In this document: positions 2,003-63,422 of the stretch, piece by piece
Position numbering within the stretch: the first letter of the stretch is position 1
Layout of the letters: every line of letters begins with the position of its first letter
Assembly: GCF_028641065.1 (NCBI RefSeq)
Contig: NC_073398.1
Coordinates: forward strand, 21,824,001-21,888,000
DNA from: Leucoraja erinacea
Taxonomy: Eukaryota
Direction: 5' to 3'
Length of the DNA stretch: 64,000 bases
Translations under genes and position numbers: made by a program
The notes under the pieces: generated by a model
Told to the model about the DNA's origin: nothing
Database searches by the model: none
What the model saw: the letters and a program-made list of their open reading frames with translations, nothing else

Positions 2003-2094
2003 GTGCTTCCACAACGATTCCAGAAGACTTCCCTGCCTTTAAAACAGTCTACAGGATCATTGCAAAAGATCCTGACCCTCAAGGAGAAATTAAA
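2003..2094 (+). CDS. Gene A exon A1 (92 nt, phase 1-0): [31 protein letters not shown]
   Basis: aacag|GT..AAA|gtaaga; same size as paralog exon 53483-53574. Confidence 0.88.
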
Positions 2095-5000
2095 GTAAGA
2101 AAGTAATTCAATTAATTTACACAACAAAGCCAGTAAAGTCTGAAGGGATAATCAAAGAATATTTTGATTCTGTTGATATGTCGCTTGGTCAGCCAAGCAT
2201 TATCGTGAACTTCTGTGATATCGCCACTTCACCAAATCCTAGTCTCACCTCTCCACCCGAGACCTCAAATGTTTCAATGAATCTCAATCCTTCCTTCTGA
2301 GATTGCTTCATAATTACATGCCTTTCCCAAATGATGGCCTTGTTCAAAACTGGAACTTAATCATCATCTTTTACACACCCATGTTATCAGCAGCTTTTCT
2401 GCACTATGTTATCATGAAAAAGAAATATGCTGATATGTGGAGGTAGCACAGATCATACAATGGATAAAGAGATGTGCATCTGGCAGAAGCAGGGGAAGCC
2501 ACCATCATTCCACCTCTTCCTCAATGATCTCTTCTCTACTTGTTCTCTATGCCTTTCCTACCTTCTCCTCCATCACTGTTCTTTGTATCTTCTCTCCTCC
2601 TTTAGAAGAGATTTTGGCTTTGCTTCTACATTCACGATGACTACAGGAGATTGAGTTGTGCTTGTGTACGTGAGCTTTTAGCTTTTAAAAGTATATTCAA
2701 ATAGACCTTGGTCAATCCTGCTCTGTTACATAATATTACTTTTTCAGCTATCATCGATGAAGTAACAACTGAATTTTTTAACCTTTCCTTTCTATTCAGT
2801 TTACTATAATTAATGATCAAAGTGATGCTGCCAAGTATTTTTCATTGGACCCTAAAGATGGAATTATCTCCAAGACCAACGAGCCACTTGATTATGATCA
2901 AGGCATGAAGGTACATATGGACATCAGGTGGGTTTGCTTGGGTCTGATATGATCCCAAGTGTAATCAGTGCTGAATTCTCTGAATTCTCTTTATGGCAGC
3001 AATACAAGATCACCATTTCCGTGAGTGAAGTGGGAAAGACTCCTCCAAAATCCTGCACGGGAACCATTACAATTACCATCCAGAACCTCAATGATGAATC
3101 TCCAGTTTACTTGTGAGTAACATTCCGCATTTAGAACCTGAATATTTACTCAGTTCCTTTTTTGTGAGATAGGATATGAAAACCTGCCTCCATTTATATG
3201 CTAGTTTTGTACAATCAATAAAATATATTTAACCCACAGATGAAACAAAACTATTTGAGTGGTGGATTCCTGACAAGTTAAATGGAGTCTAGAGCCTAAA
3301 TGTTGGCCATTTGTTCTGGAACTGCCAACATTTATTTTCCACTCCTGGTTGTCCTTGATAAATAAACAATTAGTCCATCTTCTTGGGTCTCTGCAGTTAG
3401 CGGGTTGGAACTTATCCCAGGCTGTTGATTGGTATGGGAGCCTAGAATTTTGACATTCACCACCTCTCATTCTTTTGTGGCATTCAAGCAGTTGCTTCTC
3501 ACACTGTGCTGATGTGTGCATCACCTTCCTCTTTAAATACACAAGTCCTATCCTTTTCAACCACTTCATTTTGGAAAATATTCCACCATCTCCATATTAG
3601 GTCTGGGAGATGCTGCATCCATCTGTTCAGGGCTCAACCACACATGGATACAATTTATCCACATTCAAAACCAATGGTCCAAAATTCATCTTTTTGATTT
3701 GGCAAACACTCTTTATTCACATGCCCACAATTGGATTTTATTATTGCTTTGAATGTACTAAACGTTGTCTGAGGAAGCTTCACTATACTTAGTAAAGTAC
3801 CACAAGCCTCAGTAATGAGCAAAATATTTACAGCAAGATTGAGCAGTTCCTCAGAATCCCATGCCATGTGACTGCCTTCTTGACCATGTTGACCTACCTC
3901 ATCTTTCCCTGTACTTTTGGAAAATGATTCTCTGGATGTTACTGGAAAATCCAGCAACTTTTCCTACCGCTATTTGACTTGCCTACCGCTATTTGAAATG
4001 TAACAGTGATTTTCATGAATCAATCAACTTAAATGATGAAGATGCTGCCACAAATACTGAGGTTGGAAGCTCTGGGATGCTAACCAAATGAAATCAAAAG
4101 ACCAGCAATCATACAATTAAATCAGAGTGGTCCGGGAACTGAGGGAGATGTGTTTCCATGCACGGGCTCCAAGTTTTCTTGTCATGCTACGGTTATGTTA
4201 TCTTGTTACATTTCCCTTTTAAGAACATCATGTGTGTGTTTCATTTTTAAGACGTTTGCCTATTTCTGAGCTTGCTATATATTCTGGGCATGGTCAGAAA
4301 GAAGCAGCCTATATTGACATTCGGAGCAGGAGTGAGTGTGTGAATTAATCATAAATAGAAAGGTTGAAACTGTCAGACTTTACACTGTCCTTGCACTTCC
4401 AGGCAGTGAGCTCATAGATGCAAGAGGTGCTGTCAGAAAAGCCATGATGAATTGCTGCAGTGCATTCTGTAGAAGTTAAATGTGGCTAGAGTGCACCAGA
4501 AATCTTGGAGAGTGAATATTGAAATAATACAGGGGCATGTTAGTTCTGGATGCCATAGAGCTTGAGTGTTGTGGGAGCTTGGAAGATTATTCCACCACAT
4601 TCCTGGCTTGTGTCAATAGTCATGTCATGAGTATTTTATTGCCATTTGTCCAGAAATGGATCAGAGAGTCATAGAGTGATACAGCGTGGAAACATGCCTT
4701 TCGGCCCAACTTGCTCACACCAGCCAACATGCCCCAGCTACACCTGTCTGCATTTGGCCCATATACCTCCAAACCTGTCCTATCCATGAATCAATGAAAT
4801 TCTTACTTGGAGCAACACAACTGATATGTAAACATAGTACTTCTTTAAACACCATAATAAACAACAAACATAGTTCAGTGTATCTATATTTTGAGGCTGT
4901 GACTCCTGCAGATCCCTTTGATGGTGGGGAGGTCAGTACCTGTGATGGACTGGATGATGTTCACCACAGCTCTGTCTAATAGGACATGTTAGCCGCAGAC

Positions 5001-8000
5001 CAGCCTAATTTGTGGAACACCACCACCACTTCTGTTTACAGCAAGCAATCTGAACGTGAGGGAGAAACAATTGAAGGGGAGAGATTGAAGTGCTGTCTCA
5101 AAGTAGTTGCCAGTTTAGCTTTAATAAACCTTAGATGAGGTTTCCTCCAGTTATTGAATGGTATGGCACAGAAAAGGTCAGAAAAACCCATAAATTTGGG
5201 GGATGGGAATTAAGATCAATGCATAGCAGAAAGACACAATGCATCTACAAGCTCTGAACTAAATCAGGCAGATCATGGAAACACAATACATAGCAGTAAC
5301 CTGACTTATGACATTCAGTTATCAGTGAACCTGTTCTGTTTACTCAACATCTTCTGTTTAAATTGCACAGAGGTACTACACTGTGTAATGTAGGACAGGC
5401 AGTTAGACTGAAGAACATCCCATATGGCAGAACATGCAACCCCTCAACATCCTGATAATGCCTCTACTGTGGTTCTGAATCACAAACTGGTCACTGCAGG
5501 AAGAGGCAATTTGGCCTGTAAAGTCTATACTTGCTCTACCAGCTATTTCCACCCCTATTATTTCCCTCTAGCCCTGAAAATTATTTTCTTTCAGATGTTT
5601 ATCCAGCTCCTTTTTTGATCACAATAATTGAATCTGCCTCTACTTCGACCCATGGCACTGCATTCTAGACCATAACCACTTGCATTAAAAAAAAATCCAA
5701 ATTAGACACAAACTGCTAGTGCAACTCAGCGGGCCAGTCAGCATCTCTGGAAGAAAAGCATAGGTAATTTTTCGGGATCGGGACCCTTCTTCAGACTTAA
5801 TAAACTTCTTGGATCACTATTAGTTCATTTGCCAATGACCATCATGTTATGTCCCTTGGTTTTTGAAATCTTCTATGGGAGCAATTTCTTACCTTCTATG
5901 CTGGAAGGACCATGATGATCTTAAACCTTCTCCTCAATGGCAGTACCTCGGGATGGCATGATTCCACTTCGGGTCTGTGGATTGTGAGGTCCACCAGGGA
6001 ACCTCTGACCCTTCCACAGATGCGGCAGGATATGCCAGCGAAGGGCAGGCGAGTGTATGAGAGATGCTGTACTCCTGCCGCATTTACACTGGGCTTCTGT
6101 GAGCTCCCACTGCATGGATTCAAGGTTCTCTGTGCCAGCCCAAATTCTCCTTCATTTTGAAGTCATGGGGCAACATCCCTTAGAGCCAAACATGCTTTGA
6201 GAATAACCTTTTTTTGTTGTCCGTCTGCTAATCTCTTCCATGATGGAAGTCCAAATATAAGGCTTGCTTCAGGAATCTGATGTAATGCAGGCAAATGGTA
6301 TGCCCTGTCCCTTGGAGTTGACTGAGTGGATTGGGTAAACTGGCCTGCAAGATGACATTGACGTTGACATTTCTTTGCTTATCATGCCAGCGGGTTTGGA
6401 AGGTTTTGTGGAGACAGGATTGAAGGTATAATTCTTGAGCATTGAGGAGCCTGCTGTAGAAACATAGAGATCACAGTTGCCAAGTGCACCATGGGTGTTG
6501 TGCCAAGGTTGAGATTTTGACCTGCAGAATTTTCATCATTTGGCCAAAGTGCTGACACGCTGAGTCTGATGGCGAATTTGATCATCGATGTCTGCTTCCG
6601 ATGAGAAGTGGCTCCTGAGAAATGGGTTCAGGCCTCAGGGAATTTGTCCCGCAGATCAAGACCCAATCCTATTGCTGATGGAATGCTACGTTGAAAGATG
6701 GTATTTTGTGGATGAGGTTTTAAACTGCAGCCTCTTCTAACATCTCATCTAACAATCCCATCAAACATGTTGAAGAAGAGAAAGGAAGTTATTTCTGGTT
6801 TCCGGACAATTGTTCCTCTGCAACAATATCAGTTGAATAAAAGTGACAATAACAGGGAGAGTGTAAAGGATAATCACCAGGCTGTTATCTGGATTGGAGA
6901 ACTTTAGTTTTGGGGAAAGATTCAACAGACTGGGCTTATTTTCCCCAGAGCAAAGGACTGTGAAGGTTGATCCGATAGAGTACATATAATTATAACATAC
7001 ACACAGAACATAGATATTAAGAATCTTTTCCCCAAGTGGTCATAGGCTTAAGGTAAGAGGAAGGATTTGCAAAGAGGTTCTGACGGAATGTTTTCTGTAC
7101 AGGGAGTGGTTAATATCTGGAATGCGCTGCTAGAGAGGGTATTGAGCCAGTCAAAATCACTTTATTTTTGAGACATTTAGGCATTAAGGCAAGGTATAGA
7201 AGAATACAGACACAATGCAAGAAAACAAAACTAGTGTAGTTGAACAAAAAAGATCAGCACAGACATGGTGGGCTGATTTGTGCTGTAGGACTATCATTCT
7301 AAATTGCTGTTAATGGGATCTCAATGTGCATAAATGACTGCTGCATCCTCAGATTATTAGAGTCTGCACTGCACTTCTAATTCATCACTTTGATTGGAAG
7401 TTGCAGTGGGATATTGGAGGTTGCAAATGCTAATCTTTTCTGTTAGAGTAGTCTCTGTGCTGCTGAAAAGAATGGAAAATCCAGGATTTAATAGATGTCG
7501 TGAGCAGCAGTTTCCCCTTCTATTACCCATGTCTAGATCATCTTTGAGAGTGTGTATTGGTGCGTAAATGTGCAATTGTATCCATTTTCAGAACATGGTT
7601 CTCAAAGAAACTGAGCGGATAATTAAATAATTAAAACAACTTCATCAAGACTTGATAGTTGACAATATATCAGATTATTTTGTTTGTTTCTAAGGAATCC
7701 ACCTAATGTTATAAACATTCCCGATGATGAGTCTGCAGGGACTATTGTAGCAAAGTTCACAGCAACTGACCAAGATGTGGATGACAGAGTCTTCTATGAA
7801 TTTGCTAGCAAGCACAAAGGCTTCACCATTGATGAAAGTGAGTGTTACATATTTCATTTTACATTGTGTTTTGGATTACCGCTGTTAGTTTGTGAGAGAT
7901 TTCCAAACACTTGGATCATGTGCGAGGTTGGATCTTGCATTGGTCTGTGGCCAGATTAATTTTCAATAAAATCACCTCTGCACTTTTTGATGTTTGAGAG

Positions 8001-11000
8001 CCTCTTCATATTGATATGTACTTGTTATTAATCCGTTGCTTCTGTATCTGGTTTCAATATTCTCCATTGCTTACGTCTTGTTCTATCTTTTCCTAATTTT
8101 CCCTTTTAACTGATCTATGCCAGGTCTTTGGCCTCAAAGAAATTGAATTACTTCATCACTCAAGTTATCCTGCCTTTGACATATTCTATTTTTGTACTTA
8201 ATCTGATTATATTGAAATCATAGCTTCCACACTGACAAATATTTAAATATGTTGCTGAATTGCCAAATATTTTCATTATTCCTTGTAAATTTTAAATATC
8301 TTCAGATTCAGATTCAGATTCAGATTCAATTTTAATTGTCATTGTCAGTGTACAGTACAGTACATTTTAAATATCTTGTTTTGCTTATGGGTTTTCACAG
8401 ACACAGGAGAACTCAAACTGACCCATCGCCCTGATTATGATGACACCACCTTTCCTAACAAACAGATACTGGAAATTAGAGCATTTGACTCCAACCGGGT
8501 CCATTCCGTCACTGCAACAGTAACTGTTAATATTATTGATATTAATGACAATGCCCCTCAGTGCCAGCCAACCCTTTACAAGTGAGTACTTAACATCAAA
8601 CCAACAATAGACCAATGATTATTACTCTAATGCAACAGACTTTTAAATGTTTCCTTATTCAGTCACAGTGACTTTACAGTAATCCTCAAAATGGATATAC
8701 ATTTCAATCACCGCACTAAAATCATCTCCAGCAATCACTGAAAATGTCCTGATTTATTGGAAAGCCCTGTTCAGATTATATTTAATGAAGAGTACAGTAT
8801 CATTAGGAAAAATAAAGTTCTCTTCTGACCTAGCATTGAGATGATTGATGTGAGGAAATTGAATTTAGAACCAAGGCATCTAGAATACAATTAAGTGACC
8901 TCATCTCTTACCTTGCATGAACTTACTAAAAATGTGTTTTTCGTATTCAGCCTTCATTATTCTTGTACTAAAATGTTAATTATTTTCACTTCAAAGCAGG
9001 GAAAGGATGTGTTCCAGCGTGATCCAGACCCCTCCTTGTTATCATGCTCTTAAATGCCATTAAAGCCTTTCTCCTGGTAGATATTCCCTTCACTGGGTCC
9101 TCTTTTTAATTAATGTTGTCCATCTTCTGACAACAGCTCTCCCTATTACAGAAGCTCTGAGACCAAGTTGGCTTCTAGCAATAGAAAATATTCTGAATTA
9201 AATAGAATAGAAACATAATATTGCAAATCTGTTCTGTTCACCCTGAATACCAAATGTGATCTTTGATTCCTGCAAGCATAACTTCACTGGCAATGGTATT
9301 GTATTTAATATATAGCTTCTGCTCAATGTCACATTTTTGTGCCTATTCATATATCACCGTATAACTCTGAAGGAGTAACTGAACATAACTGAACATTTCA
9401 AGCAATGCTATAGTCAAATGTGGCCCCACATCAGATTTTCAGTGCATAAAATGATTCCAGAACTTGATTTTGAGTCAATAAAGTCAGAAGGAGTTTTCCA
9501 TTCGGTTACCATTTCATCTTCTTTTGCAGTGCTGTGCTTGCTGAAACAGACCCACCAGGCACCATGGTCACTTTCCTGAACTGCTGGGACAATGATTCAG
9601 AAGCACCTAATAATCATCTCACCTACACACTGGTGCTGGATTCCTTTTCTTAGGGAGCAGGAACAATGATACGTGATCAGACTGACCAAGGTGGGGGAAC
9701 CTTGTCTAAAATGTTATTCTTTTCACTTCAAAGCAGGGAAAGGATGTGTTTTTTCCACAGACAGATTTTCTAATAGTAAAAATGAAATACAAGTAAGTAT
9801 TAAAACATTGGAAAGAATGGAGACAAGGTGTGGCGTTGTTCCATCCCACTTTCATAGTAGTTTGAAAAAAAAACATAGTTTTCTGAATTGAAATTGAAGT
9901 TCTCTTCATTGGCTCTGTGCTTCTGCTGAATAGAAATGCCATGCAGATTCAACATAGAGTCACAGAGTCACACAGCATGGAAACAGCCCCTTTAGCCCAA
10001 CATGTCCATGCTGACCAAGATGCCCCTTCTAAGCTGATCCCATTTGCTTCCATTTGGGCCATATCTCTCTGAACCATTCCTTTAAATGTCCAAGTGCCCT
10101 TTAAATGCTGTTACAGTACCTGCCTCAACTACCTCCTCTGGAAACTCAAGTGAAAAAGTTGCGTCACAGGTTCCTAATAAATCTTTGCTCTCTCACCATA
10201 AACCGAGGTGAGAATATGAAACCGACTTATAGATGTCAGTAAGAACAAAACCCCTTTGTTACTCATTCATGATATCATTGTTTAAATAAAAATAAAATGA
10301 TACTTTGCGATGTAACACGTTCAACATACAGATGTTTCCAGTAACATACGACTGAACATCTGCAGAAACTAATTGTTGGAAGGGTAATGTAAAAGTTATG
10401 ACAGTAAACAATAACTCACATGTTTAAATTGTAGTCATTTTAAAGAGGCATTAATATCATTTTCATTGATATCATTGTTTATTTTCTGTGCAGGTTTTCT
10501 CCCATTTTTAGAAGGTAATCTTTGTATTTTGATGAATTGTTGTCGCCATAACAAGTTAATTATCCAGTTCTGAATCAGGATTAGTATATTGTGACTCCAC
10601 ATGAAACATTGTACAGAGAGTTGGTTAGAAAATCATTGTTGCAAAATAACATTGATATCATTTATTATGGATGGATAATTTATAAAATAATATGTCATAC
10701 ATTATGCTTGCAGATTGGCCAAAAGGGTTTGGACTATGATGAGTCAACATTTGAAGGTCAACAATTTAAACATACAATACTAATCAAGATTTCAGATGGT
10801 GGAACTCCTTCTTTAACAAGTGAGTGTCCATGTTGGATAGATATATGAGGCCAAAGTGCAGTAAACAGGAAAGGTCATTTTTTCTCTTTGCAGGGAGAAA
10901 AGTAACCAGGGAATATGGATTTCTGGTGAATTGATAGAAGGATTTGAAACCATAAATGTCATCCCCCCAAAGAGTGCTGTGATGTTTGCCTGGCAGGCAA

Positions 11001-14000
11001 GATAAATCTAGAAACACTTGGATAAGTAGTGAAATGTTTTCAATCAATATGGTTACAGTACAAAAGTAGGGATAATTTAAGTGGCTCTCATTTGGCCGGC
11101 ATGGCCATTTTGAGGAGCTGCTTCCTTCTATGCATGGATTTAAATGATTGTATGATGCAATGAACCTCACGATATCACTGGTTTTCATTAAGATTTGCTA
11201 ATTGGTGTCTTGCCATCTGCTTTGGACAGGCACAGCTACTTTGATTGTACAAGTGACGCGTAGAAATGAATGGAATCCCAAATCCGACGATTTAATATTC
11301 ACTGTCGCTGAAAACAGCCCAATTGGAACAATTGTGGGCCTCGTAAAGTTCACTGATGCTGATCTGCCTTATGACAGCATTCGGTACAGCATTGCCAGTG
11401 GAAACAATGATATCCCTCCCAGATTCTACATGGAACCCAATTCAGGTTATCTTCACCTTTCTTTCTTCAAAGCATATTGGCTGACTGAAATATTTGACCA
11501 ACTTCCAATAGTATAGACAAGTAAAATAATACATTCACAAAATTCTGCATCTGCATGGTGGATCAACCAGGTGGATGGCTCCACCGTACTTTATCTCCAA
11601 TTACCTTCAATTATCATGGGAGATTACTGTTTCTCCTTCCTTCAGTTACTTGCCCTCAGTCTATGATTGTTAATTTAGAGATTTTGTGCTTTGAACCAAA
11701 TTGTGGCAGGAACATCAACAATTGGCGCAATTAGTGTGGGGCAGTTTTATATATGCAGATCTAAAACTCAGTGACTTCATTCAACCCCTTGCATTGATTT
11801 TATAACATTTGAAGTCCTAGAAATGAGCATAAAGATTGATTTTTGTATTGCAGTACATTTTTAAATGTCAGAAACGTTTATATGTGAAGTGTATGTTATT
11901 TTCTGACATGATCAAAATGTTTCCGGTGCCTGGACACCAGGGCAGCTGAAGGTCCTGAACCTACTGGATGCAGAAAGTGCAGCCCGCTATTCCCTGACAG
12001 TGCAAGCGTTGGATCTGAATAATGATCTTGAGTCTGATCCACAGAAGCAGAAGACCAGCTTCGCCATGGTCACAGTGAACATTCTGGTAAAGTATCAGAA
12101 ATCTACTGCCTGACAAGGCACGCTTGTGACCTGACTTTTTGTTTTGGCATTTTAGATTTAAATGAAACCGTGCATTACATTTTATAACTCGAAACATTGT
12201 CTGCAACTTCTTGGGGGGAAAATGGAGGAAATAAGAGTTCATAGACACCAAGTATACTGGGGTGGGAGATCTTAGCCTCGACTGAGGTTTCACCTTTGCG
12301 ATAGTGGACAAAGCTGAATGATGACACATAGACCGATGAAATAAATTTAGTTTGTATTCTCGTGGGTGTTGAGGATTGAGGAGTGTGTTAATTGAAGTGC
12401 TTAGAATAATAAAATAATTCAACGGGGTAGATACAGCAAAACCATTTCCTCCCTAAGGCAACCAACATCACAGATCCCACCGAGAAATTGAGAGCTAAAA
12501 TTACAATGGGAAGTAAGAGCTTGGATCCCCAAAGGGGTGTAGCTGTCGGATTTGATGTACTTTTCAAGGTGCATCCTGATGGCAATTTGTGTGGGTAAAT
12601 TATCATCAGATGGGGTAACCTGACTGCAGTTACATGTGTGGTCACATCAGCAAAGCCATTAAATTATCTTACTTTTAAAATCTAAAATAGACTGTTCTTG
12701 AATAAATAAATCAGTTCTGACTCAAATGTCACTGACTGAAAGGTCAACTCTGCTTCCATCAGGTTGGCTGGCTGATATTTTCAGCATTTTCTCTCTCGTT
12801 TTAGATTTTTAGCATTTACAGGGCTTTACTTTAAATGAAAGTATACCCTTGTTGAACCCATTTATGTGTTTAAAGAGATTTTTATGTTATGTTGAATTTT
12901 ATAATATTGTTTTTCTGTAGCTCAAAGCGCCAGACACACACAAGCAAAATATATGTTAAAAAGATAACACCTCACTTACACCTCTGCACAGTCCTCAGAG
13001 CTACACTGACCAGTAGCAGCCCTGTGGTTTTGATTTGGCTGAAGGTCCTGCTCCCAGGGATGTCCAGTGAGGCAGGGTTGTCTGAGAGCAGTGCTGGGCC
13101 ACAGGTGGGTGCTCCACTGCAGTCTGCCCCGGCGGGCTTTTGACAACACCTGCTGGCAAAGGCCTTCCCATCACGGTCTAAATGTCTCTGCTAATGAACT
13201 ATTACAAACACTTGAAAAATAATCAACTCATTTCACAGCATATTTACCAAATGTAAGATGATTAAAAAAATGTGTAGGTAGGAACTGCAGCTACTGGTTT
13301 ACACCTAGGATAGACACAAAATGCTGGAGTAGCTCAGCGGGACAGGCAGCATCTCCGGAGAGAAGAAATGGGTGACGTTTCGGGTCGAGACTCTCCTTCA
13401 GTCTGTCCCGTTGAGCTACTCCAGCATTTTGTGTTTATCTGATTGAAAATATGTTAATTTGGCTTAAAAATTAAAAAAGGCATGCCACAGATATTAAACA
13501 CCTCTTCAAACCGGCTTGATGACCACATTAAACTGCCAAGGACAGGCTGCGTGTCATGTTTTGCAGCCAGCCTCTCAGCCCAGCATTACCAGCCTCTGCC
13601 CCTGGGGGGCAGTGCTGCATCCAGCAATGGAGCAACAGGTCAGGCAACCCCAGCCATACATTAATGCAGAGGATGGGAACACCAGGCTTACACACTGCTG
13701 TTAGTCAAGTGGTTCTCTCTGGAACCACCAACTGAAAAGAACCACACATTTCTGTGTTTTTAACTTACTTTTAATTTTTTTTAAATTATTTCAAGATGAA
13801 TTAAGAGGGAGTTAGATGTGGCCCTTGTGGTTAAAGGGATCAGAAGAGAAGGCATGTACAGGATACTGAGTTGGATGATCAGCCATGATCATATTGAATG
13901 GCGGTGCAGGCTCGAAGGGCCGAATGGCCTACTCCTGCACCTATTTTCTATGTTTCTATGTTTCATTTCTATTAGTTTTCCACTGTCTCTGAATGTAAAA

Positions 14001-28931: not shown

Positions 28932-29892
28932 TCTGTATGACTAAAAGTTTCATCTTGACTACTTCCTGTCTGCACTATGTTGATTTTAGAAAAACGCTAC
29001 CCTATATCGCCATGATTTTTGACCATCTTACTCACAGTCCTCTGCTGAAGCAGTCCCGAGGATTTTTCCGATCGATGAAAAAGAATAAAGTTATGATTGT
29101 TTAAAAAATCTTGAGATCAGCCAATTGGTCCTCTCACCTATCAATCACCAAGGTAACACCCCTTCCGGGAGGGGGGGGGGGGGGGGGGGTGGTGCGGGAC
29201 TATAAAACCCCGGATGCCTGGACATGAGTCAGTCACTCTGGAAGATCGCGAGTGAGAGGCTACAACTGTTATTATAAGTTGTGAATCAACTGAACTGTGA
29301 GTCTGCAATGTAATGATTTGTTAGCCCTTAATGACAATGCAATGAGTTGTTTGGCAATTTGGTAGCCTGCACTCTGCTTGAAATGCTATGAAATTGAATT
29401 TGGTGGCCTGCACACTGCTTCAAATGCTATGAAATTGAATTTGGTGGCCAGCATTCTGCTTGAAATAGAATTTCAAGGAATAGCAGTTGAGTGAACTGCC
29501 AGCCCACCAGCCCTGAGTGACTGAGCTGTCAGCCCACCAGCCCTGAGTGACTGAGCTTCCAGCCCAAGAATCTATTCGGTCCACAATGTCCATACTAGCC
29601 TTCTGGAAACCAGTCCCTTCGGCCCACAGCACCCATANNNNNNNNNNNNNNNNNNNNNNNNNNNNNNNNNNNNNNNNNNNNNNNNNNNNNNNNNNNNNNN
29701 NNNNNNNNNNNNNNNNNNNNNNNNNNNNNNNNNNNNNNNNNNNNNNNNNNNNNNNNNNNNNNNNNNNNNNNNNNNNNNNNNNNNNNNNNNNNNNNNNNNN
29801 NNNNNNNNGAATTGGTGGAGAGGTGGAATATTGCGTTGGGGGACCAGCCATCCTGTGTGAACATGAGACCCACCGGGTCCCACTTATTCTCG
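28932..29892 (+). mobile_element. Non-autonomous Helitron-like element spanning an assembly gap
   Basis: A|TC 5' end; 3' hairpin GACCC-acc-GGGTC followed by degenerate CTCG|T; internal tandem repeats of about 41 bp and 30 bp. Confidence 0.62.
29638..29808. other. Assembly gap (171 N)
   Basis: run of n characters. Confidence 0.99.
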
Positions 29893-30033
29893 TTTTTTAA
29901 TGAAATCTGTTATTGCATCAAACTTGGACATAGAAACTAAATTATCAATACATCATAAAATCTTTCAGAAATATATTCACATCCACTTTCACATTGTTCT
30001 TGGCATCCAGTAATTCCCCTTGTTTTCTATCCT

Positions 30034-30068
30034 TTACATCCATTTCCGCAGCCCGATCTCATTATTTC
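30034..30068 (-). CDS. Gene B terminal coding exon candidate: NNEIGLRKWM*
   Basis: strong acceptor tctttcatattttcag; GLRKW resembles TGQRRW of gene A. Confidence 0.62.
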
Positions 30069-54000: not shown

Positions 54001-57000
54001 AATTATCTACTTCAGACTTACAGAGGTGCAGCTTCATGCAGCATTTGCCAGGTAACATCACAAAGTAATGTAGCATTCACAGTATATCTCAGCAGTGTGG
54101 TTACCAAGAAGATATTCAGGGGAGCTACCTACTTTAGTTTAGAGAATCAAGCATTTCGGCACACCGCGTCCACACCAACCAACAATCCCCGCACACTAAC
54201 ACTGGTCCTACACACATTTGGGACAGTTTACATTTATACCAAGCCAATTAACCTACAAATATGTACGTCTTTGGGTTGTGAGTGGAAACTAAAGATCTCG
54301 GAGAAAACCCATGCAGGTCACGGGGAGAACCTACAAACTCCGTACAGGCAAGCACCCGTAGTCAGGATTGTACCCGGGTTTCTGGCGCTGTAAGGTAGTA
54401 GCTCTACTTCTATGCCACCCAGCTGTCACTATTTGCCTGTCTGTAAAGTTAGCAATATGTGTGGCTTTTCAGTAAAATCATTGCAAGAAATTAAATGCTT
54501 CTTGCATTAGTAAACTTGTATACATGAACATTGATTTTAAGCACAAAACATAACTAAATAATCAGCTGGCTAAGACTGGCTGACATGCATTGGAGGGTCA
54601 GGTTTTTCTCTTAGACCAATTCGTGAAACAAATCATCTTGTTGAACCATTGAAATCAATAGCATTGTACAGAAATATAAAGAGGAGACACATGAGAATGC
54701 AGATGCTGATATCTGGAGAACAAAGCACACTTCTGAAGATGCTCAGCAGGTCAAATAGCATCTTTGTGGACAAAGGGATGGTGGATGTTTTGTGTCCAGC
54801 CCCTGCATCAGTGTCCTTGCCTCCATAGACATGAGATAAATACCTGCTCCCATAGTGAATGCAGGGTCACAGTCTGGTGCTTCATCGACATTGACCACGG
54901 CGACTGTCAGCGTGTATGTGGCCGAGTGCGTCCGATTGTTATCATATGCTCTGATGGACAAGAAGTGGACTTGTGCAGCATCGGGGCTGTCGTAGTCCAG
55001 CCGGCTCTGGAGAATAATATCGCCAGAGTCTGAGGAAAGACAAAATAACACAATTAACCATGTCACCCTTCAGATGAAGGCAATATGAAATCTTAATGTC
55101 TGTGGTGATGCTACAGCATGGCAATTAGTCATGAAATTCTACTGTATCTTATGGTGTTCCCAAATCTACTGTGACCATGGCATTAAACTATTCTGAATTA
55201 GGAACTATAAGTTTTGTTACAGCAATCCAAACAGAAATGTTTGCAAAATTAATTCAGTCCATTTTGTTAATATCTCCTGGCATTACTTCCATTGATGAGT
55301 GATTAAATACGAATTTTGGTTGACAATATTATCTCCTCTGTGTTATCACGCAAGTGTGAAGTGACATTTACTGTTATGCATTTTCCTCCAACCCGGATAT
55401 TCCTTCTACTTCCTCCTGGGGGAGAGTGGCATTTAAATAACAGACACAACAGCTTTCATCCTGTCCTGGTGTCATGATGTTGGAATACACCGAAGATAAA
55501 CACAAAATGCTCTAGTATCTCAGTGGGACAGGTAGCATCGCTGGAGATCCGATACGTTGCCCATTCCTTCTCTCCAGTGATGTTGCCTGCCCCGCTGAGT
55601 TACTCCAGCATTTTGTGTCTATCTATGGTACCACTTCTTCACAGATACAACCGACAAATGGACAAACTGGATTTAAAACATGTTCAGATTAATTTTACCT
55701 GCATCCGCCTTCCGTAAAACATCATTTCTTGAAGGTTGCTCTCAGTTAGCGGAGTTTGTTAAGATGTTTGTTAACAGATTTGTTTAGATCATTGTTAAAA
55801 AGCAATGGTTTATTTATGCAGGGTCAGGATGATCATAAAACCATAAGAAATAGGAGCAGAATTGGGCCATTCAGCCCATCGAGTCTGCTCTGCCATTCGA
55901 TCATGGTTGATCTATCTTCCCCCAACCCTGTCTTCTCCCTGTAGCTTTTGACACTATTACTAATCAAGAACCTGTCCATCTACATTTTAATAAAACCCAA
56001 TGACTTGGCCTCTACTGCCATCTGTGGCAATGAATTCCACAGATTCAGCACCCTGTAAAGAAATTCCTCCTCGTCTTCATTCTAAAGGTGTGTCCTTTTA
56101 GTCTGAGGTTGTGCCGTCTGATCCTAGACTCTCCCATGAGTGGAAGCACCAGTATTGCTCCTCTCCATTGATCAGCTCTTTGTAGCAGCCTAAGAATGCC
56201 CTTACTATACAGTGCCTGCTTAATGCTAGGGGCTCACCATCTACAATTGAATGAGGCTGGGTACCTATAGCAGTGGCAACACACTGGAGTGAGTGTATTG
56301 ACAACATAGGTGGCCTCTTACATTGATACATGGTCCAATGTGGTTGGAATCTAATCTAATTGCCTTTGTAGTAACAATATTCAGTTGGCATATTTATGTT
56401 CTATTTGTTGGTGCAAGTTGCAAGTTCAGACAGACTCACCATTGCCCAAAATGAAAAGAGATTGGTTATCAATAAACTCAAAATAAAGATTGTCATTCTC
56501 ATCCAAGTCAGAAGCTTCCACCTTCCCCAGCAGAGTTCCAATGAGCATTTCCTCTTGTGCATTTATTGTATCCGAGGAGATGGGTCTGCAAAAGGAGATA
56601 GCTTCAACCACCACAGTAGTAAACAGTAAAATAAATCAAAACTTACACACAAAGCAAAAAAACTCTCATCAAATGCATTGATAATATTCTAACTTCTGCA
56701 CATTGGATATTTGGGAGTTGGACTGCTCTGGGCGACTCTAACACCGTAAATTAATTCTCCACTGCAGCTATTGTTTTATGCCATTGTGGCTCGATGTTAT
56801 CTGATGCATCCTTGGGCAAAAGCTAAGAGATAAACTCTGGGCTGGCTGCTTTTTCAATTTAACACCACCTGCTATCTAACGGCGGGATTATTCAGCAAGT
56901 CAACCAATTCAGCATTCAATTTTTCAACATAGTGACGAACCAAGCAGAAAAACTCTGTCATTTATGGCAACAGCCACTCTTATGCCAACCATATAAAGCA

Positions 57001-60000
57001 GATCCTGGCTCTATGTAGAGAGTCAGGTTTCTAGGAATTCCAATCCACCAAAGCAAGTGCACTGGGGCAAATGCACAGGCATCAAGAACATTAGTGCACC
57101 TACCAGTGCAATTCTCAGCAGCCGTTGAAAGGGGGTTGCACTGTTCTGCAATAGAAAACATGTTGCCTGGGACGTACCAGATCCTGAAACATTATGTGGG
57201 TGGGAGGGGAACAGGGATGGAGCTGAGAGCTAATCTAAGATTCAGCAATGAGATGACACTCGGGACACTGTAAGTGGCCAAGGACAGGTACGTGGCCAAA
57301 GTTTCCTATTCTTGTTCCAGAGATCCCTCTGATCTCTGCAACTTAATAGAAATGTTCTGGCAGATGTAGCCATTCGGCCTATCTGTTTACCCTGGCTCAT
57401 GGTGATGCAGTGCCAGCAATCTCATTTTCCTGTTATTACCCAGTTACCCTTTGAAGGCACTGGTTGAATCTGCTTCCACCACCCCTACATGCAGTGAATT
57501 TTGTATCTTAACTAATCTCTGCATTTCAAAAATTTTCCTTACATTTACTTGTTGTTTTTTGTTGAACTAATTAAATTTGTGCCGCTGCCATGAGCCATCC
57601 ATGAATTGTAACTGCCTCCCCCCTATTTGCCTTCTCTAAACCAGCCACAATCTTAGTATTGCAAGATGCTGGTTAATACACAAAAGAACGCAACTTAGCA
57701 GGTCAAGCAACATCCCCGGAGAACATGGATAGGTGAGGTTCCAAATCGAGACCCTTCTTCAGACCACAATCTTGTCCACCTCCATTGTTTATTTAATAAC
57801 TGCACTTGATTTTTGAATCAGGCATGCCCTTGGTTAAAATCACATCAATGCCTGCAGATTTATAGACAACATTATTCTCAGTGCAACTGTTCTTTGTTAT
57901 GGTGTGGGGTGGGCTTCATATTACAACCCGAATGCTAAGCTTGCTTTACTTACGTAAATATAGGCACTTCATCATTCAAGTCATTAACAACGATGGTCAA
58001 AGTTCCCTTGCAAGAGTGTTGTGGAGCTGGGATTCCATCATCTTTCACTTCAATCTTCAGTGTGAAAAACTGTGTCAAAAAATAATAAATGAATTACAAC
58101 AGGTGTGATTTATTGATCTTATTTCAGCACATCTAGCCCCACAATAATTTAAATTTCCCTGAAATCAGGACTGACTTTTGTGAATCACCAGCACCAATGT
58201 TAGGGAATGGGTAATTCCTGCAATTTGCCTCTAACTTTAACTGGCAGATGTCCCTATTCATGGCGATGTACCAATTAGGATAAAGAGCTGCAGAGAATCA
58301 CAGTGCCATCCTGCTGGAAGGGCTGTGCTGATAGCAGAAGATTTAGACAATCAGTTTTCGAGCCCTGTCTTCAATAGACCTTCTGTGAACAGACATTCCA
58401 CAAATTCCACCAGAGAATTGAAATGTCACTAGCCTTAAAGCAGTGTTGCTTGTGTTCACAGCAAAACATTTTTTCACAGGAACTTGCCCTCTTGTCCTTG
58501 TATAATGGCAAGTGTCAGAAATTCCCCACAGTCTCCCAGCGAACTATAATATAAAGAGGTTAACCCTATTCCCAGTCTTGTCATTTCCATGAAATAATTG
58601 TTGTATTTCACACCTCTGCATGAAAATGATTTTCCATTATTTTTACAATAGTGATCATAAGGTCATAAATGATAGGAGCAGAATTAGGGCATTCAGCCCA
58701 TCAAGTCTACTCCACTATTCAATCATGGCTGATCTTTCTCTCCCTCCTTACCCCATTCTCCTGCCTTTTCCCCATAACCCTTGACATCTGCAGTGATGAT
58801 GGGATCCAAGTTTAAAAGTTGCTGTGCATAATACTGCCTGAGATTCTGGCTTTACAGGTCTCTGTAAATTGTCCCTTAGTCCGTAGGGGATGGGTGAGAG
58901 TGGAGGAAAACATAGAACTAGAAGCCTGGATGTTCGATGGTTGCGTGGACTCGGTGTGCCAAAGAGCCAGTTTCCATGCTGTATCTCTACAACTAGAATT
59001 GGAACATGCATATATGCAGGAATATACACTCCTGGACAAGGTTCCTCCTTCAGTAACACCTACATTATTACCAATTACTGACAGAACAATTCCCTCTGAT
59101 CCTATACCCTATCCCCTCCTCGGTTCTTGAACTACAAGCATTTTTTCTTCTCCTGGGCTGAGAGCGATCTCCATTTATTAGTCACCCTCCTGCACTTCCT
59201 CGTCCAATCCAAACTAATGGAACACCAGTGGGCTGCGGCCAACTGTAAATAAACCTCCAGTGCACCCCAGCAACCAAAAGCCGCACTAAATATACAAATT
59301 GTATTATATTAATTACTACATAAGAGGACTGTGACTGCAGACTTTTCAGGGTAAAATGCTAGGAAGTGGAGAATTTCAATTTTAGTTCATTCCAATGTGA
59401 ATATATTACAGCACCATATGGAACATTTCGAGGAAAATGCTTAGCAATTTATTTTAGTAAATGACAAAAAACCTTTGCATACACAAATAAAAAGATCTAG
59501 TATTGCCTTGTAAATGTTTTCTGGACTTACATGATATGTGTGGTCATAGTCTATTATTGTTGTTGAGTTTCTGTACACAATTCCAGTGTCAGGGTCGATG
59601 TTGAACAAGTTGCCTCCGGTAACTGGACTGGATTCCTGGGACACAATGCTAAACTAATACAAATATGGAGACGCGTTAATTGACTTAGGTTTAAATAATG
59701 ATAGAGTAAGTTTATTTGTGATGGAATTTTTGCTTGTAAAATTTAAATTGTAATGATAATGTGAGGTGTCGGAACTTACAAATCGATGCAACCCGATTAG
59801 CTGAATGGAGTTCAGTGGAAACTATGTGTCATGTGTAAGGAAGAACTGCAGATGCTGGTATAAATCAAAGGTAGACACAAAATGCTGGAGTAACTCAGCA
59901 GGCGAGGCAGCATCTCTGGAGAGAAGGAATGGGCGATGTTTTGGGTTGAGACCCTTCTTCAGACTCAGTGGCGGACTGGCCAGGGTGTCAGCTTGCCCGA

Positions 60001-63000
60001 TGGCAAGTGGGCCCCTGATGAAGTGATAGCTAGTGATGGCAAGTGGGCCCCTGTGAAATGATAGCATTGTAGTTGTGGGTGGGTCCACTTTGTCTCCTGG
60101 CAACCAATATTTTTAGATCCAGTCCGCCACTGTTCAGACTGATGTGTCATGTACTGTGTATCCCAGAATTTGCAAATCTGAGTATTTTCTTGATGGTAAA
60201 AGATTAGCGGAGTAGTGAACAAATGTTCTTGTTGAAATATACAATCATTTTCAGCTTGTGCCAAGGTATGAAGTCAAATGGACTTACACCACTTACACCA
60301 CTGTGGCTGGAATACAAATGGGTGGATGTTATACTTGGTCAAACATGATGTGGATTGCAGAGCTTAGTGGGTGTAGTACTTTTCGAAAAGGGACATGTTA
60401 AACATCAAGAGATCATGTGCAAATTTACAACAATGTTCTCGAAGCTTAATGGGTTAAATTAGAAAGATCATGCTACATAAATGAGTTTTAGGAGGGAGAT
60501 CTGTTCCTGGGCTTTAAAATGGAATAGGAAATGAATATCGACTGCAGGGCGAATTCAGAATCAGGACACAAACCTGAAGGTTCCAATCACGCCAAAACAA
60601 AGGTTTTAATGTAGGAATGTATTTAAAACGTTTTGGAAGACAAGGAGCACCATATTATTGGCACCTGCCTAAAATTGTCTGATATCTATGTGTGATATCT
60701 CTATTGTTCTGATAGTTCAGATATCGGGTAGAACTTACTGTCAGTGAATCTCCTGCATCTGGGTCTTCAGCGGTAACCTGGTAGACTGATTTGAGATTTG
60801 GGTAATTCTCATCAATGTTCACAGTGGCTGCAATATATAAAAGCATTATTATTGCTCCCAGCAATGACTGATCACTTGGATGCATTTATTTTATATTGTG
60901 GGTTTGCTGGAGAACGGATGGATGGTTGGATGCCACCACACCCTTCCTCTCACCATCTCCTCCCATTCCACAAGCCTTCCCTTACTCAATCTCCTGCACA
61001 TCGCCGATCATAGCGACCCCTCATATCTTTTGCTTCCGTTGGTCTTCTACTGTATCTTATGGTGTTCCCAAATCTACTGTGACCATGGCACTAAACTATT
61101 CTGAATTGGGATAATCCTTTCACACTAAGGGTGGTGGGTGTATGGAAGCTGCTGCCAGATGAGGTAGTTGCAGCAAGGACTATCCCAATCTTTAAGAAAC
61201 AGTTAGACAGGTACATGGAAAAAAACAGGTTTGGAGGGATATGGGCCAAACGTCGGCAGGTGGGACTAGTGTAGCTGGGACATGTTGGCCGGAGTGGGCA
61301 AGTTGGGCCGAAGGGCCTGCTTCCACGCTGCTTCACTCTATGACTCTATGAAAGACCGATCCTAAAACTTGCCTGTTCCTTGTGTCAGCTGTGGTGAGGT
61401 GCACACTGGTGGTTCATTGACAGGCTGAAGCACAATGGTCAGGGTCACTGTGACAGTGTTGAGCCCTTTGTCTGTGACAAACACTTGCAGTGAATGGTAT
61501 TTGATTGTTGTGCCGTTATCGTAGTCCAGTACTGTCGTTGTAGTCAATATCCCTGTATCTGTAAAGGTACAAACTATTGTGATCAATTCTTTCTCAAAGC
61601 GCATGAACATCCTACTCGAACAAAATGGAAATGCATTGAATCACAAATCATCAATGTGACGTCAAATATTGCGGATTTGCGCATTGTTAACAAAGGCTTC
61701 TCTTTGTAGTAAACACCATACCGAGGGATTACAGATTAGCAAGAGATTTCAACCAATTTATACATTTTAAAAGAGAAAACTTATTTTTATGCATGACATG
61801 GGCTTTGATATTTTTTAATGCGACTTGCATTGTATTTGATGCAAGAGTTAGACAGAATTTAGAGAGAGTGCCAGGGAAAGTGATCTATTTATCTCTGAGA
61901 CAAGGTCTTCCTTCTTTCTGACATCTGCTGCTGTGACATCGTTAACCAGTCAGGCCCTGAACCTTGGATTGTTTTCACTGGAACATAAGAAGCTAAGGGA
62001 CAACCTGACCGATGTACACAATTATGAGCAGCCTTGATGCAGTTGATGGTCAAAGTATTTTTCCCAGGATGGAAAAATCAACTAACTAGAGGAAATAGGA
62101 TTAAGGTGGGAATCATCATTTTAAATGTGATTTAAAAGACAAATGTTTTATACAGAGGGCGGGAGATGCCTGAAACACAGTGCCAGGAGTGGTAGTAGAT
62201 ATGAAAGTGATAATTAAGAAGCATATAGATAGACACATGAACAGGCAAGGAATAGAGGGATATGGACCTCTTGTAAGCAGCTGGTATTAGTTTAGATTGA
62301 CATCATGGGAGCAACAGACATTGTGGGCCAAAGGGCCTGTTCCTGTACTGTTCTATGTTCTACATTCTCTCAGAGTGCAAATCAGGAAGGAAAAGCAGAA
62401 ATTAAGTATCTCCATCTTTGGAATATCCTTGTGAGTGCATAATAACTCTTATTTTTTTTTTGGGGGGGGGGGGGGGAGACTGTTTACTAGTTGGGAGAAT
62501 GGGATTAAGGGATAGATAGATCAGCCATGATTGAATGGCGGAATAGACTTGATTGGCCAAATGGCCTAATTCTGCTCCTAGAACATATGAACACAAGGCA
62601 ATTGTAATGGCCTTTGGGGATCCGACTAACAATGTGCATCGTGGGTAGAGCAGGGATGTGAAGGGATATATGAAATATGTCACAACCACAGTTTGCTTTT
62701 TACATTTTTAATAAATGTGTATGTTGAGTGATATCCTTACTTGGATCAATGGAAAAGTCTTGGGAAGCTGTAGCAAAATTATAAGATGCAACATCATCCG
62801 CATCCCTATCGGTGGAATTCATCCGCACCACCTCTGTTCCAATGGGTTGGTCTTCCGTGAAATTTATTGGATTTTCAGGGCTGAAACTTAACATAAAGAG
62901 TGAGGTTTTATAAACCTGTCACAAGGAGTGACCAATATGCATGGTCCTCCACTACTCCCACATTATAGTTTCCATGAACTCATTTATTTCTGCATAACAA

Positions 63001-63422
63001 GAATGATTCTTCGTAACTCCACAATATCCCAAACACTTTGCAAAGGGCACATCACCTGCTGTAACATGTTTTATATGTAACTAGTTATATATAGTGCAAG
63101 AAGGAACTGCAGATGCTGATTTACACCGAAGATACACACAAAATGCTGTCTGAAGACTGAAGGGTCTCGACCACAAACTTCACCCATTCCTTCTCTCTTG
63201 AGATGCTGCCTGTCCCGCTGAGTTACTCCAGCATTTTGTGTTTGTATTAGTTGTATATCGACCCTCTTTATTCACGGTGGCCCCCCACTCCAGGTCTCCT
63301 CCTTACCTCACGACAGGGATTTCATCATTCAGATCAAGGATGTTAATAATGAGAGTTCCTTCACAGGACATCTGTGGAGCTGGGTTTCCTTTATCTTTCA
63401 CTGTAACACCCAATGAGAACAC
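30034..63422 (-). CDS. cdhr4-like: Gene B: cadherin-related family member 4-like paralog with expanded ectodomain, 5'-partial, about 23 exons; tail exons uncertain or disrupted
   Basis: 20 phase-consistent exons from 63422 to the TM exon (32584-32714); the last 12 correspond one-to-one to A1-A12; tail exon candidates at 30364-30034. Confidence 0.85.
30178..30208 (-). CDS. Gene B cytoplasmic exon candidate: ASFNGKTVHP (homolog of FDGRTVDE); donor reads AT instead of GT
   Basis: ttgcag|GCA TCG TTT AAT GGA AAA ACT GTA CAT CCA A|ataatg. Confidence 0.55.
30297..30364 (-). CDS. Gene B cytoplasmic exon candidate (68 nt): TSPAPNELRSILR, then apparent 1-nt frameshift (TGA at 30321-30319)
   Basis: tgtgtttcag|G..GAG|gtagct; removing 1 nt gives ...RHDPPPPQPE with a phase-0 end, as in A14. 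Confidence 0.55.
32584..32714 (-). CDS. Gene B exon B20 (131 nt), transmembrane: FTTSVLSLTSAYWAPESWFVALMTLAAAVTVLVVFGIAWACIT
   Basis: tccag|TTC..AG|gtcagt. Confidence 0.9.
32930..33225 (-). mobile_element. HE1/V-SINE-like SINE
   Basis: gccaattaacctacaaacc..tacgtctttggaatgtgggaggaaaccggag..tctctggcgctgtgaggcagca..tgcaccactgtgc. Confidence 0.75.
33275..33545. repeat. Degenerate GC-rich minisatellite-like array
   Basis: recurring gg(a)accccca(g)tga / gcaggacccc(c)a(a)gt(g)acatc units. Confidence 0.55.
33712..33956 (-). CDS. Gene B exon B19 (245 nt): ENAEDLFELQRAG...[19 protein letters not shown]
   Basis: tgtag|AA..CAG|gtaatc; counterpart of A11. Confidence 0.9.
34470..34860. repeat. Degenerate C-rich tandem repeat
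   Basis: recurring ccagctgcacacccagtcccactgccc and gccagtaccactcccagct units. Confidence 0.65.
35600..36125 (+). mobile_element. Nested CR1-type LINE 3' fragments
   Basis: RGNFFTQRVVAVWNELPVEVVEAGSLVSFKNKLDRHM (ORF 35715) inserted within another CR1 tail. Confidence 0.75.
36715..36856 (-). CDS. Gene B exon B18 (142 nt): NVNDEPPVCNPEYYESTIYSTITTPFVQLQCSDGDSPDDELSYSIVG
   Basis: tgcag|AAC..G|gtgaga. Confidence 0.92.
36889..37127. mobile_element. MITE with imperfect TIRs of about 37 bp and a degenerate (TAACCC)n core
   Basis: ggtacttttcggtgccgccattttggcgcctccgttt vs aaacggtggtgcctaaacggcggcgccgaatggtacc; direct repeat agtgtga at 36882-36888 and 37128-37134. Confidence 0.72.
37561..37594 (-). 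ncRNA. Minimal hammerhead ribozyme motif (Penelope-like element copy)
   Basis: minus strand reads GGTCTGAAGAAGGGTCTCGACCTGAAATGTCACC. Confidence 0.55.
39197..39522 (-). mobile_element. HE1/V-SINE-like SINE
   Basis: same consensus as 32930-33225 with (tttag)n tail. Confidence 0.72.
40176..40321 (-). CDS. Gene B exon B17 (146 nt): GRIRLLSSLDSEKQGTYILTVKATDMNNDLQLDPLRQRSSSALVTVNVL
   Basis: gacag|GT..TTG|gtaagg. Confidence 0.92.
41045..41260 (-). CDS. Gene B exon B16 (216 nt): TARVIVKVTPVNERSP...EDSPIG...PPRFYIESDS
   Basis: cttag|GT..G|gtaatg. Confidence 0.92.
41356..41461 (-). CDS. Gene B exon B15 (106 nt): VGSSLLQYDVSSFAAVHFQHLIIVKITDNGKPQLT
   Basis: tacag|GTC..A|gtgagt. Confidence 0.92.
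42006..42162 (-). CDS. Gene B exon B14 (157 nt): MELAETSPEGTPVVSLNCWDNDRTVVNNILNYSMVLDSYSTGRFNISGNEIT
   Basis: cctag|C..ACT|gtaagt; intact counterpart of A6. Confidence 0.92.
44245..44550 (+). mobile_element. CR1-type LINE fragment
   Basis: RLHFEYYVPFWSPCY...[19 protein letters not shown]. Confidence 0.75.
45111..45420 (-). mobile_element. HE1/V-SINE-like SINE
   Basis: same consensus; ends actgtgccaccc. Confidence 0.72.
45480..45660 (-). CDS. Gene B exon B13 (181 nt): DTGEIKIASLVDYDD...IADVNDNPPQCSRYIF
   Basis: aacag|AC..AT|gtaagt; counterpart of A5. Confidence 0.92.
46005..46432. mobile_element. Two oppositely oriented V-SINE fragments
   Basis: cacagtggtgcagctgatagagg...(+) joined to ...gtctctggcactgtaa...cactgtgcc(-). 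Confidence 0.62.
47876..48021 (-). CDS. Gene B exon B12 (146 nt): PISPNPLIIDENLPWKTFLIKVNATDKDENDVIYYEFVKTHAGFLIEE
   Basis: tcaag|G..G|gtaaat. Confidence 0.9.
48942..49560 (-). mobile_element. CR1-type LINE 3' fragment
   Basis: reverse-strand RT C-terminal sequence (YRERLGKLGLFSLE) and catagaacatag tail. Confidence 0.72.
49667..49779 (-). CDS. Gene B exon B11 (113 nt): RFQMEIEIAEAGKSSPKSCTGSVTINLENVNDEPPIF
   Basis: aacag|AGA..CT|gtaagt; counterpart of A3. Confidence 0.9.
49800..50356 (+). mobile_element. CR1-type LINE 3' fragment
   Basis: gcagttctggtcacccc...gtgcagaggaggtttacc...gtactgttctatgttcta tail. Confidence 0.75.
50758..50871 (-). CDS. Gene B exon B10 (114 nt): YTITDATAGATQYFILDSSSGLISRTSISPLDYEAGIK
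   Basis: cccag|TAC..AAG|gtaaat; LDYE motif. Confidence 0.9.
51706..52419 (-). mobile_element. 5'-truncated Nimb/I-clade LINE (RNase H end, zinc-finger region, 3' UTR, (GAA)n tail)
   Basis: VPAHIGIRGNELADKVAK RNase H motif; CEYCGQEETIEHVIIHC; ccagttggtggcggtaatgcac 3' motif; near-identical target duplication ccc(t)tttgtgtttt. Confidence 0.82.
53483..53574 (-). CDS. Gene B exon B9 (92 nt): GVSLSIPENFPTSASVYQLLAADPDINDSVK
   Basis: accag|GT..AAA|gtaagt; counterpart of A1. Confidence 0.9.
54130..54420 (-). mobile_element. HE1/V-SINE-like SINE
   Basis: aagccaattaacctacaaa..gtcacggggagaac..tctggcgctgtaaggtagtagctctac. Confidence 0.75.
54844..55029 (-). CDS. Gene B exon B8 (186 nt): DSGDIILQSRLDYDSPD...VVNVDEAPDCDPAFTMGA
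   Basis: ctcag|AC..CAG|gtattt. Confidence 0.9.
56440..56585 (-). CDS. Gene B exon B7 (146 nt): PISSDTINAQEEMLIGTLLGKVEASDLDENDNLYFEFIDNQSLFILGN
   Basis: tgcag|A..G|gtgagt. Confidence 0.9.
57954..58069 (-). CDS. Gene B exon B6 (116 nt): FFTLKIEVKDDGIPAPQHSCKGTLTIVVNDLNDEVPIF
   Basis: cacag|TTT..AC|gtaagt; homologous to B1. Confidence 0.9.
59531..59653 (-). CDS. Gene B exon B5 (123 nt): FSIVSQESSPVTGGNLFNIDPDTGIVYRNSTTIIDYDHTYH
   Basis: attag|TTT..CAT|gtaagt. Confidence 0.87.
60739..60827 (-). CDS. Gene B exon B4 (89 nt): ATVNIDENYPNLKSVYQVTAEDPDAGDSLT
   Basis: tgcag|CC..ACA|gtaagt. Confidence 0.9.
61373..61558 (-). CDS. Gene B exon B3 (186 nt, GC donor): TGILTTTTVLDYDNG...VLQPVNEPPVCTSPQLTQGT
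   Basis: tacag|AT..CAG|gcaagt; same size as module counterpart 54844-55029. Confidence 0.87.
61960..62365 (+). mobile_element. CR1-type LINE 3' fragment
   Basis: ttggattgttttcactggaa...gggccaaagggcctgttcctgtactgttctatgttcta. Confidence 0.7.
62741..62880 (-). CDS. Gene B exon B2 (140 nt): PENPINFTEDQPIGTEVVRMNSTDRDADDVASYNFATASQDFSIDP
   Basis: ttcag|C..A|gtaagg. Confidence 0.9.
63307..63422 (-). CDS. Gene B exon B1 (116 nt): VFSLGVTVKDKGNPAPQMSCEGTLIINILDLNDEIPVV
   Basis: tgcag|GTG..AG|gtaagg; DLNDE motif. Confidence 0.9.

Follow-up and report, generated by a model that had tools for sequence, protein, structure and literature searches.

The 64,000-nucleotide stretch of Leucoraja erinacea DNA analysed here (contig NC_073398.1, positions 21,824,001 to 21,888,000; hereafter the window) carries two cadherin genes, A on the forward and B on the reverse strand, which lie tail to tail. 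Judged from their sequences, both are members of the CDHR17 clade, in which A is of the ordinary type with eight repeats and B is a long paralog of sharks and rays. The genes were recognised through six-frame open reading frames and self-comparison, after which the splice sites were fixed. Of each gene, the window contains the 3' half, with the 5' part beyond its borders, and no further gene was found in its 64 kb. In effect, A belongs to a known, nearly unstudied subfamily, and B is an undescribed long variant that is kept in databases under wrong names. No mention of Cdhr17, Gm28710 or CDHR17P was found in the searched literature outside subscription journals, and Cdhr18 appeared there only in unrelated work; a description of the long B-type gene was likewise not found at the level of titles and abstracts, with subscription journals and supplements outside coverage.

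Placement of the pair in the CDHR17 clade

With the C-terminal portion of the shark A protein as query, 139 representatives were retrieved, and 30 proteins were then named by look-up. A lizard member used as query brought in frog, reptile and mammal proteins of about 1,000 aa; among the best 120 of 679 matches are the Jaculus 'Cadherin related family member 17' and the rodent Gm28710. The tree was built from 42 rows and 494 columns covering the last four cadherin repeats and the transmembrane (TM) segment, with the tail excluded and rows picked to cover each subfamily. In this tree, A and B join Jaculus CDHR17, mouse P0243, the eight-repeat frog, reptile and reedfish rows and those from coelacanth in one clade supported at 100/100. 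Mouse P0243 is presumably Cdhr17, and humans have a CDHR17P pseudogene. CDHR4, including a catshark CDHR4, and CDHR3/CDHR18, including a Rhinoraja CDHR3, branch apart from the A/B clade; CDHR4 exists as a separate gene in catsharks and CDHR3 in Rhinoraja.

The preliminary description of this DNA had placed the pair, as a possibility, in a chondrichthyan CDHR4-like cluster and had named for mammals only single CDHR3 and CDHR4 genes. Neither view is supported, as the pair sits in the CDHR17 clade with frog, reptile, reedfish, coelacanth and mammal members and comprises two genes only, and databases also name a mouse Cdhr18. It is highly improbable that the pair arose by lineage duplication of CDHR4 or represents CDHR3 and CDHR4 as two separate orthologues. 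Such an origin would agree with database names of the 'CDHR3-like' and 'CDHR4-like' kind, with the position of CDHR4 as the nearest other subfamily sharing a short end after the final Trp, and with the apparent presence of the catshark pair on the same chromosome as CDHR4. However, a single clade of B and CDHR4, a group that came from the earlier hypothesis and was put to the approximately unbiased (AU) test after the tree had been seen, is rejected with p 2.5e-6, the test covering B. Moreover, shark and skate CDHR4 and CDHR3 rows fall in those clades, and eight repeats stand against six. The phylogeny, an analysis suggested at the outset, agrees with the earlier view that the two are not separate 1:1 orthologues of CDHR3 and CDHR4.

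The likeness to CDHR17 consists of the common clade, the two-module, eight-repeat plan of the A type, and a core identity of 45–51% (45–47% to rodent rows, 48–51% to crocodile). The differences are that two copies exist here, that the number of modules in B is three or more (nine in the catshark orthologue), and that A keeps a tail motif which many mammalian models lack in whole or in part. CDHR4 shares the same tail motif, ending just after Trp, but it has six repeats and about 790 aa, with a core identity of 33–38%. CDHR3, the rhinovirus C receptor, and CDHR18 share the repeat–TM–tail plan and the tail motif; their core identity is 25–33%, 34–136 residues extend beyond the motif, and CDHR3 has six repeats (PMC6301718).

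The suspicion that automated pipelines mislabel such genes was well founded, since the names Protocadherin Fat 4, Fat 2, Fat 3, cadherin-23-like and CELSR-like were all met. The Pfam cadherin domain PF00028 is present in 4/4 orthologues scanned, and calcium motifs occur in the window models. EGF, LamG or seven-pass blocks were not found in the Pfam scans of these four orthologues, and both window genes have a single TM exon followed by a CDHR tail, so that they do not belong to Fat, CELSR or cadherin-23. Cadherin-23 and Fat4 resemble the pair in their long repeat arrays, and the 22 repeats inferred for B approach the 27 of CDH23. In contrast to these proteins, the four A/B orthologues scanned lack EGF and LamG blocks, and the pair carries a CDHR-type last repeat, TM segment and tail, and the length of B comes from a private two-repeat module. 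A search of solved structures returned generic cadherins, with CDHR3 only at rank 60 (E-value 3.4e-13).

Exon structure and state of the two genes

The A exons at 2003–18057 (forward strand) measure 92, 111, 113, 143, 181, 263 (157 + 106), 106, 216, 146, 142, 248 and 131 nt, and the B exons at 53574–32584 (reverse strand) 92, 114, 113, 146, 181, 157, 106, 216, 146, 142, 245 and 131 nt. As first noticed, sizes and phases are conserved: 12/12 pairs agree when A exon 6 is counted without its insert, with AG/GT at all sites. The proteins are 52% identical over 593–595 aligned residues (blastp E 0.0), with a saturated synonymous divergence (pS 0.76) and a nonsynonymous divergence (pN) of 0.30. Introns show no obvious similarity, in keeping with the initial impression; 9/11 same-rank pairs give no blastn match, and the remaining 2/11 match only in dispersed repeats present in 11–38 copies in the window. 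The correspondence of exons and phases is far beyond chance and reflects an old duplication. Together, the 12 pairs, the saturated pS and the introns sharing dispersed repeats only uphold the earlier proposal of an old inverted duplication of a whole gene. Of the facing stop codons reported about 4.9 kb apart, the figure holds between the A stop at 25173–25175 and 30036–30034 (4.86 kb), but the likelier end of B is at 30321–30319, 5.1 kb away. Two features had gone without mention, namely eight further coding exons of B upstream (63422–54844), which repeat compared exons 1–5, and the absence of the extra 106 nt of A exon 6 from public DNA runs.

Gene A occupies 2003–25175 on the forward strand with its 3' 16 coding exons, which encode the last five of an inferred eight repeats, the TM segment and the tail. 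Its module 1 (2003–8581) comprises five exons of 92/111/113/143/181 nt and two cadherin repeats, the TM exon lies at 17927–18057, and the last two exons (23992–24028, and 25117 to the stop at 25175) bear the conserved WW-like C-terminal motif. No match to upstream A exons was found in window positions 1–2002. The encoded protein is 91% identical to Rhinoraja P0006 over 490 aa. The P0006 model itself runs at its C-terminus into intron sequence, matching window positions 18642–18803, instead of the two conserved last exons, which is likely an annotation error.

Exon 6 of A contains a 106-nt insert (9651–9756) that brings an in-frame TAG (9651–9653) and a frameshift; the frame is open once it is removed. 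Contigs from 3/3 DNA runs (X1, X3 and X6) bypass exactly these positions. Run X1 shows 0 other differences from the window over three pieces totalling about 3.6 kb, at even depth; across the insertion site it reads through insert-free with a depth of 26, against 26–30 in the flanks. This run may represent the source sample, which makes it not independent of the assembly, yet the right test for an assembly error. The insert is probably such an error, and gene A is most likely intact. It is quite unlikely that the sequenced animal carries a null allele of A through a real heterozygous or private insertion: the ends of the insert have short T-rich direct repeats, about 50 nt are 94% like 8962–9013 in nearby intron 5, and contigs drop rare variants, but X1, otherwise identical to the window, spans the site insert-free at full depth, as do X3 and X6. 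The depth bin containing the insert has very high contig depth, so part of the insert is repeat-like. Reading the insert as a new intron was discarded; a donor at 9690 and an acceptor at 9761 preserve the frame, but the TAG stays.

Gene B spans 30319–63422 on the reverse strand with 21 coding exons, which encode about nine repeats, the TM segment and a 15-residue tail. Its open frame has 980 aa, and its core is 77% identical to Mustelus P0002. Upstream of the 12 compared exons, eight more repeat a five-exon unit of about 92/114/113/146/181–186 nt. Module 1 (45480–53574) has exons of 92/114/113/146/181 nt and module 2 (54844–60827) of 89/123/116/146/186 nt, and module 3 (61373–63422) is represented by its last three exons of 116/146/186 nt, with a GC donor after 61373. 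Both module-linking exons have 186 nt and phase 1-1, an arrangement that would permit in-frame gain or skipping of whole modules. The TM exon lies at 32584–32714. All 20/20 ectodomain and TM exons are open, with canonical or GC–AG splice sites.

The first tail exon of B (30297–30364) carries a TGA at 30321–30319 after 15 tail residues. Further on, the remnant of the FDG exon (30178–30208) has altered conserved residues and AT in place of the GT donor, and the remnant of the last exon (30034–30075), compared by eye with shark tails, is five codons shorter than theirs, with AT at the expected acceptor site. A direct splice from the TM exon to 30068, leaving a two-residue tail, was dropped, as the exon at 30364 matches shark tails. 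Shark B orthologues retain the full tail. To judge by this sequence, B of the window has lost the conserved C-terminal motif via a premature stop and decayed exons.

These lesions could also be the first signs of pseudogenisation, with B recently dead or dying in the lineage of this skate. A premature stop, a destroyed donor, a truncated last exon and altered residues at near-invariant tail positions would fit such a fate, as would the lack of a full-length batoid B among five matches of one protein search. The idea is nonetheless unlikely, since the 20 exons stay open over 33 kb and the end branch of B (0.19) does not exceed the skate A lineage (0.20 + 0.03) in length. Nonsense-mediated decay follows a 50-nt rule, and the B stop, 22 nt before the next donor, is in a position expected to escape it. 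The tail motif is also missing at the end of rodent Cdhr17 models.

An assembly gap of 171 N (29638–29808) separates the genes; it leaves the true A–B spacing imprecise and may conceal a further small feature. By eye, an element of about 480 bp (about 19515–20000) with terminal inverted repeats of about 35 bp was spotted, and a GC-rich element with a similar end starts near 22325; both are possibly non-autonomous DNA transposons.

Modules, repeat number and age of the duplication

The B module, a unit of five exons and two cadherin repeats, is present in the window in two full copies and part of a third. Compared with catshark modules, module 1 is 76%, module 2 76% and module 3 68% identical, while modules 1, 2 and 3 compared with one another reach 33–45%, and module 1 of B compared with module 1 of A 47%. 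Three outer catshark modules are 76–87% alike, which suggests that the outer shark modules are recent or homogenised; module 3 appears old and common to skate and sharks. Shark B orthologues have 1,429, 1,603, 1,760 and 2,492 aa and are named cadherin-23-like or Protocadherin Fat 4. The longest, catshark P0200, labelled Fat4, has a signal-like start with seven full and two near-full module matches, and these nine modules would give 1 + 18 + 3 = 22 repeats. Some later repeat pairs scored weakly against the module profile (32–65 bits), shifting a few labels, and were not counted. Full-length relatives of the A type have eight repeats and about 1,030 aa, the window itself holding only the last five of A. 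Long Fat4-labelled invertebrate proteins with the same tail motif, P0026 (3,765 aa, amphioxus) and P0112 (2,295 aa, Saccoglossus), and also P0061 (2,201 aa), were met; the long CDHR-type ectodomain may be an ancestral state or may have evolved repeatedly.

In the module tree, the module 1 copies, whether from A, B or bony CDHR17, form a group (98), as do module 2 copies (91), with module 3 of B as the sister of module 2. The A orthologues P0006 and P0201 have two copies of the module formed by extracellular cadherin repeats EC2–EC3, and B has the orthologous modules 1 and 2 plus extras. In Scyliorhinus torazame, A and B bear the consecutive locus tags scyTo_0002069/0002070 on a scaffold of equal length (825,581), and the two apparently share a contig also in Mustelus and S. 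canicula. Because the genes are adjacent in catshark too, the pair is older than the shark–ray split.

Both a duplication specific to cartilaginous fish and an older one are compatible with the trees. A duplication before the divergence of jawed vertebrates, with A as the CDHR17 orthologue and B lost in bony vertebrates, is held to be slightly on the probable side. In the best tree B is sister to A plus bony CDHR17 (93/92; Shimodaira–Hasegawa (SH) support 90–95 in other trees), but a cartilaginous A + B clade is not rejected (AU p 0.147), the tree is without a named chimaera row, and the lizard-query search covered bony proteins of up to 1,399 aa. A 179-aa fragment, P0020, is 65% identical to shark A and to shark B alike; it branches as the sister group to the B proteins (SH 91, 32% of columns) and could bear on the timing.

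The trees suggest a history in which a six-repeat, CDHR4-like ancestor copied its EC2–EC3 module and so came to have eight repeats. The whole gene would then have been duplicated and inverted before the shark–ray split, after which B may have kept gaining tandem five-exon, two-repeat modules.

The C-terminal tail and a proposed function

The family tail follows the pattern F/Y-D-G-x-A-x-D-P-x-S/T-G-x-x-Y-x-F/Y-N-S-x-T-G-x-x-x-W, which A keeps in full and which recurs in long amphioxus and hemichordate cadherins. The full motif is found in 15/48 CDHR17-clade rows having a TM segment. Most mammalian models of the clade are without part or all of it, although some may be incomplete, and the tail loss in window B thus has precedent. 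Among the mammal rows (P0243, P0230, P0229 and others), the motif is missing from rodent CDHR17 models, and bat and marsupial models keep it without the final Trp.

The search with shark A also surfaced multi-WW proteins through the tail stretch, three being WW by Pfam and one FG-GAP. AlphaFold2 models the tail as three strands at a predicted local distance difference test score (pLDDT) of 87–94, and the best Foldseek rows are the Pin1 WW, with a root-mean-square deviation of 1.8 over 25 columns. The tail shares with the WW domain (PF00397) a predicted three-stranded sheet and the pattern DPxxG-x-Y-x-F/Y-N-x-x-T-G-x-x-x-W, in which the groove Tyr and second Trp appear retained. It differs in having Phe for the first Trp and, in the CDHR4 and CDHR17 types, no closing Pro, and its scores are under the cut-off. 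In an Atlas feature search with the tail, 3/10 rows fell on WW parts, under its threshold, and one row reached 0.76, which is no more than a lead; a wide fold search (best Z 2.6) returned no WW row. No literature linking CDHR3 or CDHR4 to a WW domain was found, judged by titles and abstract openings. On these models, the tail is fairly likely to be a degenerate WW-like domain, outside Pfam membership.

Calcium at the junctions of cadherin repeats stiffens ectodomains into rods. A and B are single-pass cadherins with calcium motifs and two ectodomain lengths, and the tail is kept in A and lost in B. They would likely work as calcium-stiffened cell-surface links of two lengths. A would serve at the apical surface as a short protein for adhesion or spacing, linked on the inside to proline-rich partners via its predicted WW-like tip, and B would act, without the tip, as a tail-short spacer or long tether whose module number sets its reach. 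Calcium-dependent apical adhesion in ciliated epithelia is a likely role; CDHR3 has six repeats, is apical on ciliated cells and is of unknown role (PMC6301718). A look-up of public runs by A exons 5–9 listed no RNA data set, and in one RNA run labelled with the same species (tissue unstated), of which about 5% was read, reads fell only on repeats.

Taken as a whole, the reading of an eight-repeat ancestor, an inverted gene duplication, module growth in B and links of two lengths is considered reasonably probable. Several findings weigh against it or its parts. The catshark pair is apparently on the CDHR4 chromosome (two catsharks), and reedfish CDHR17 apparently lies with CDHR3, not CDHR4; fusion, translocation or hidden paralogy are possible causes, and A may consequently not be a strict 1:1 orthologue of mammalian CDHR17. 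The count of 22 repeats comes from one automatic catshark model. The tail lesions of B come from a single assembly, the present one, in which one error at least is probable, and no batoid B protein for comparison was present among 22 candidates of up to 2000 aa. As to the tail, the FG-GAP repeat protein fits the motif likewise, the Foldseek E-value is 1.5 at best, with none significant, and Pfam WW scores 15.2 bits against a cut-off of 26.9 in one tail, below membership. A WW match at E <= 10 was obtained in 2/42 family members, the modelled tail itself giving none.

A bolder version, in which a giant B of about 22 repeats links motile cilia or microvilli (about 100 nm) and a WW-like signalling tip marks the whole CDHR3/4/17/18 family, is doubtful. 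If true, B would have arrived independently at a tether the size of cadherin-23, its length tuned through the gain of two-repeat modules, and the rhinovirus C receptor of humans would be among proteins signalling through an unrecognised degenerate WW domain.

As a gene pair, A and B represent an ordinary old duplication, and their proteins are already in databases, misnamed. The value of the finding lies in the correct identification of a vertebrate cadherin subfamily that is widely mislabelled, as CDHR17 rows are named Fat, CELSR, cadherin-23, CDHR3 and CDHR4. Additionally, B is a clean example, from cartilaginous fish, of ectodomain lengthening through exon-module duplication. The WW-like reading of the tail also offers an experimental way into CDHR3, the normal function of which is described as unknown (PMC6301718).

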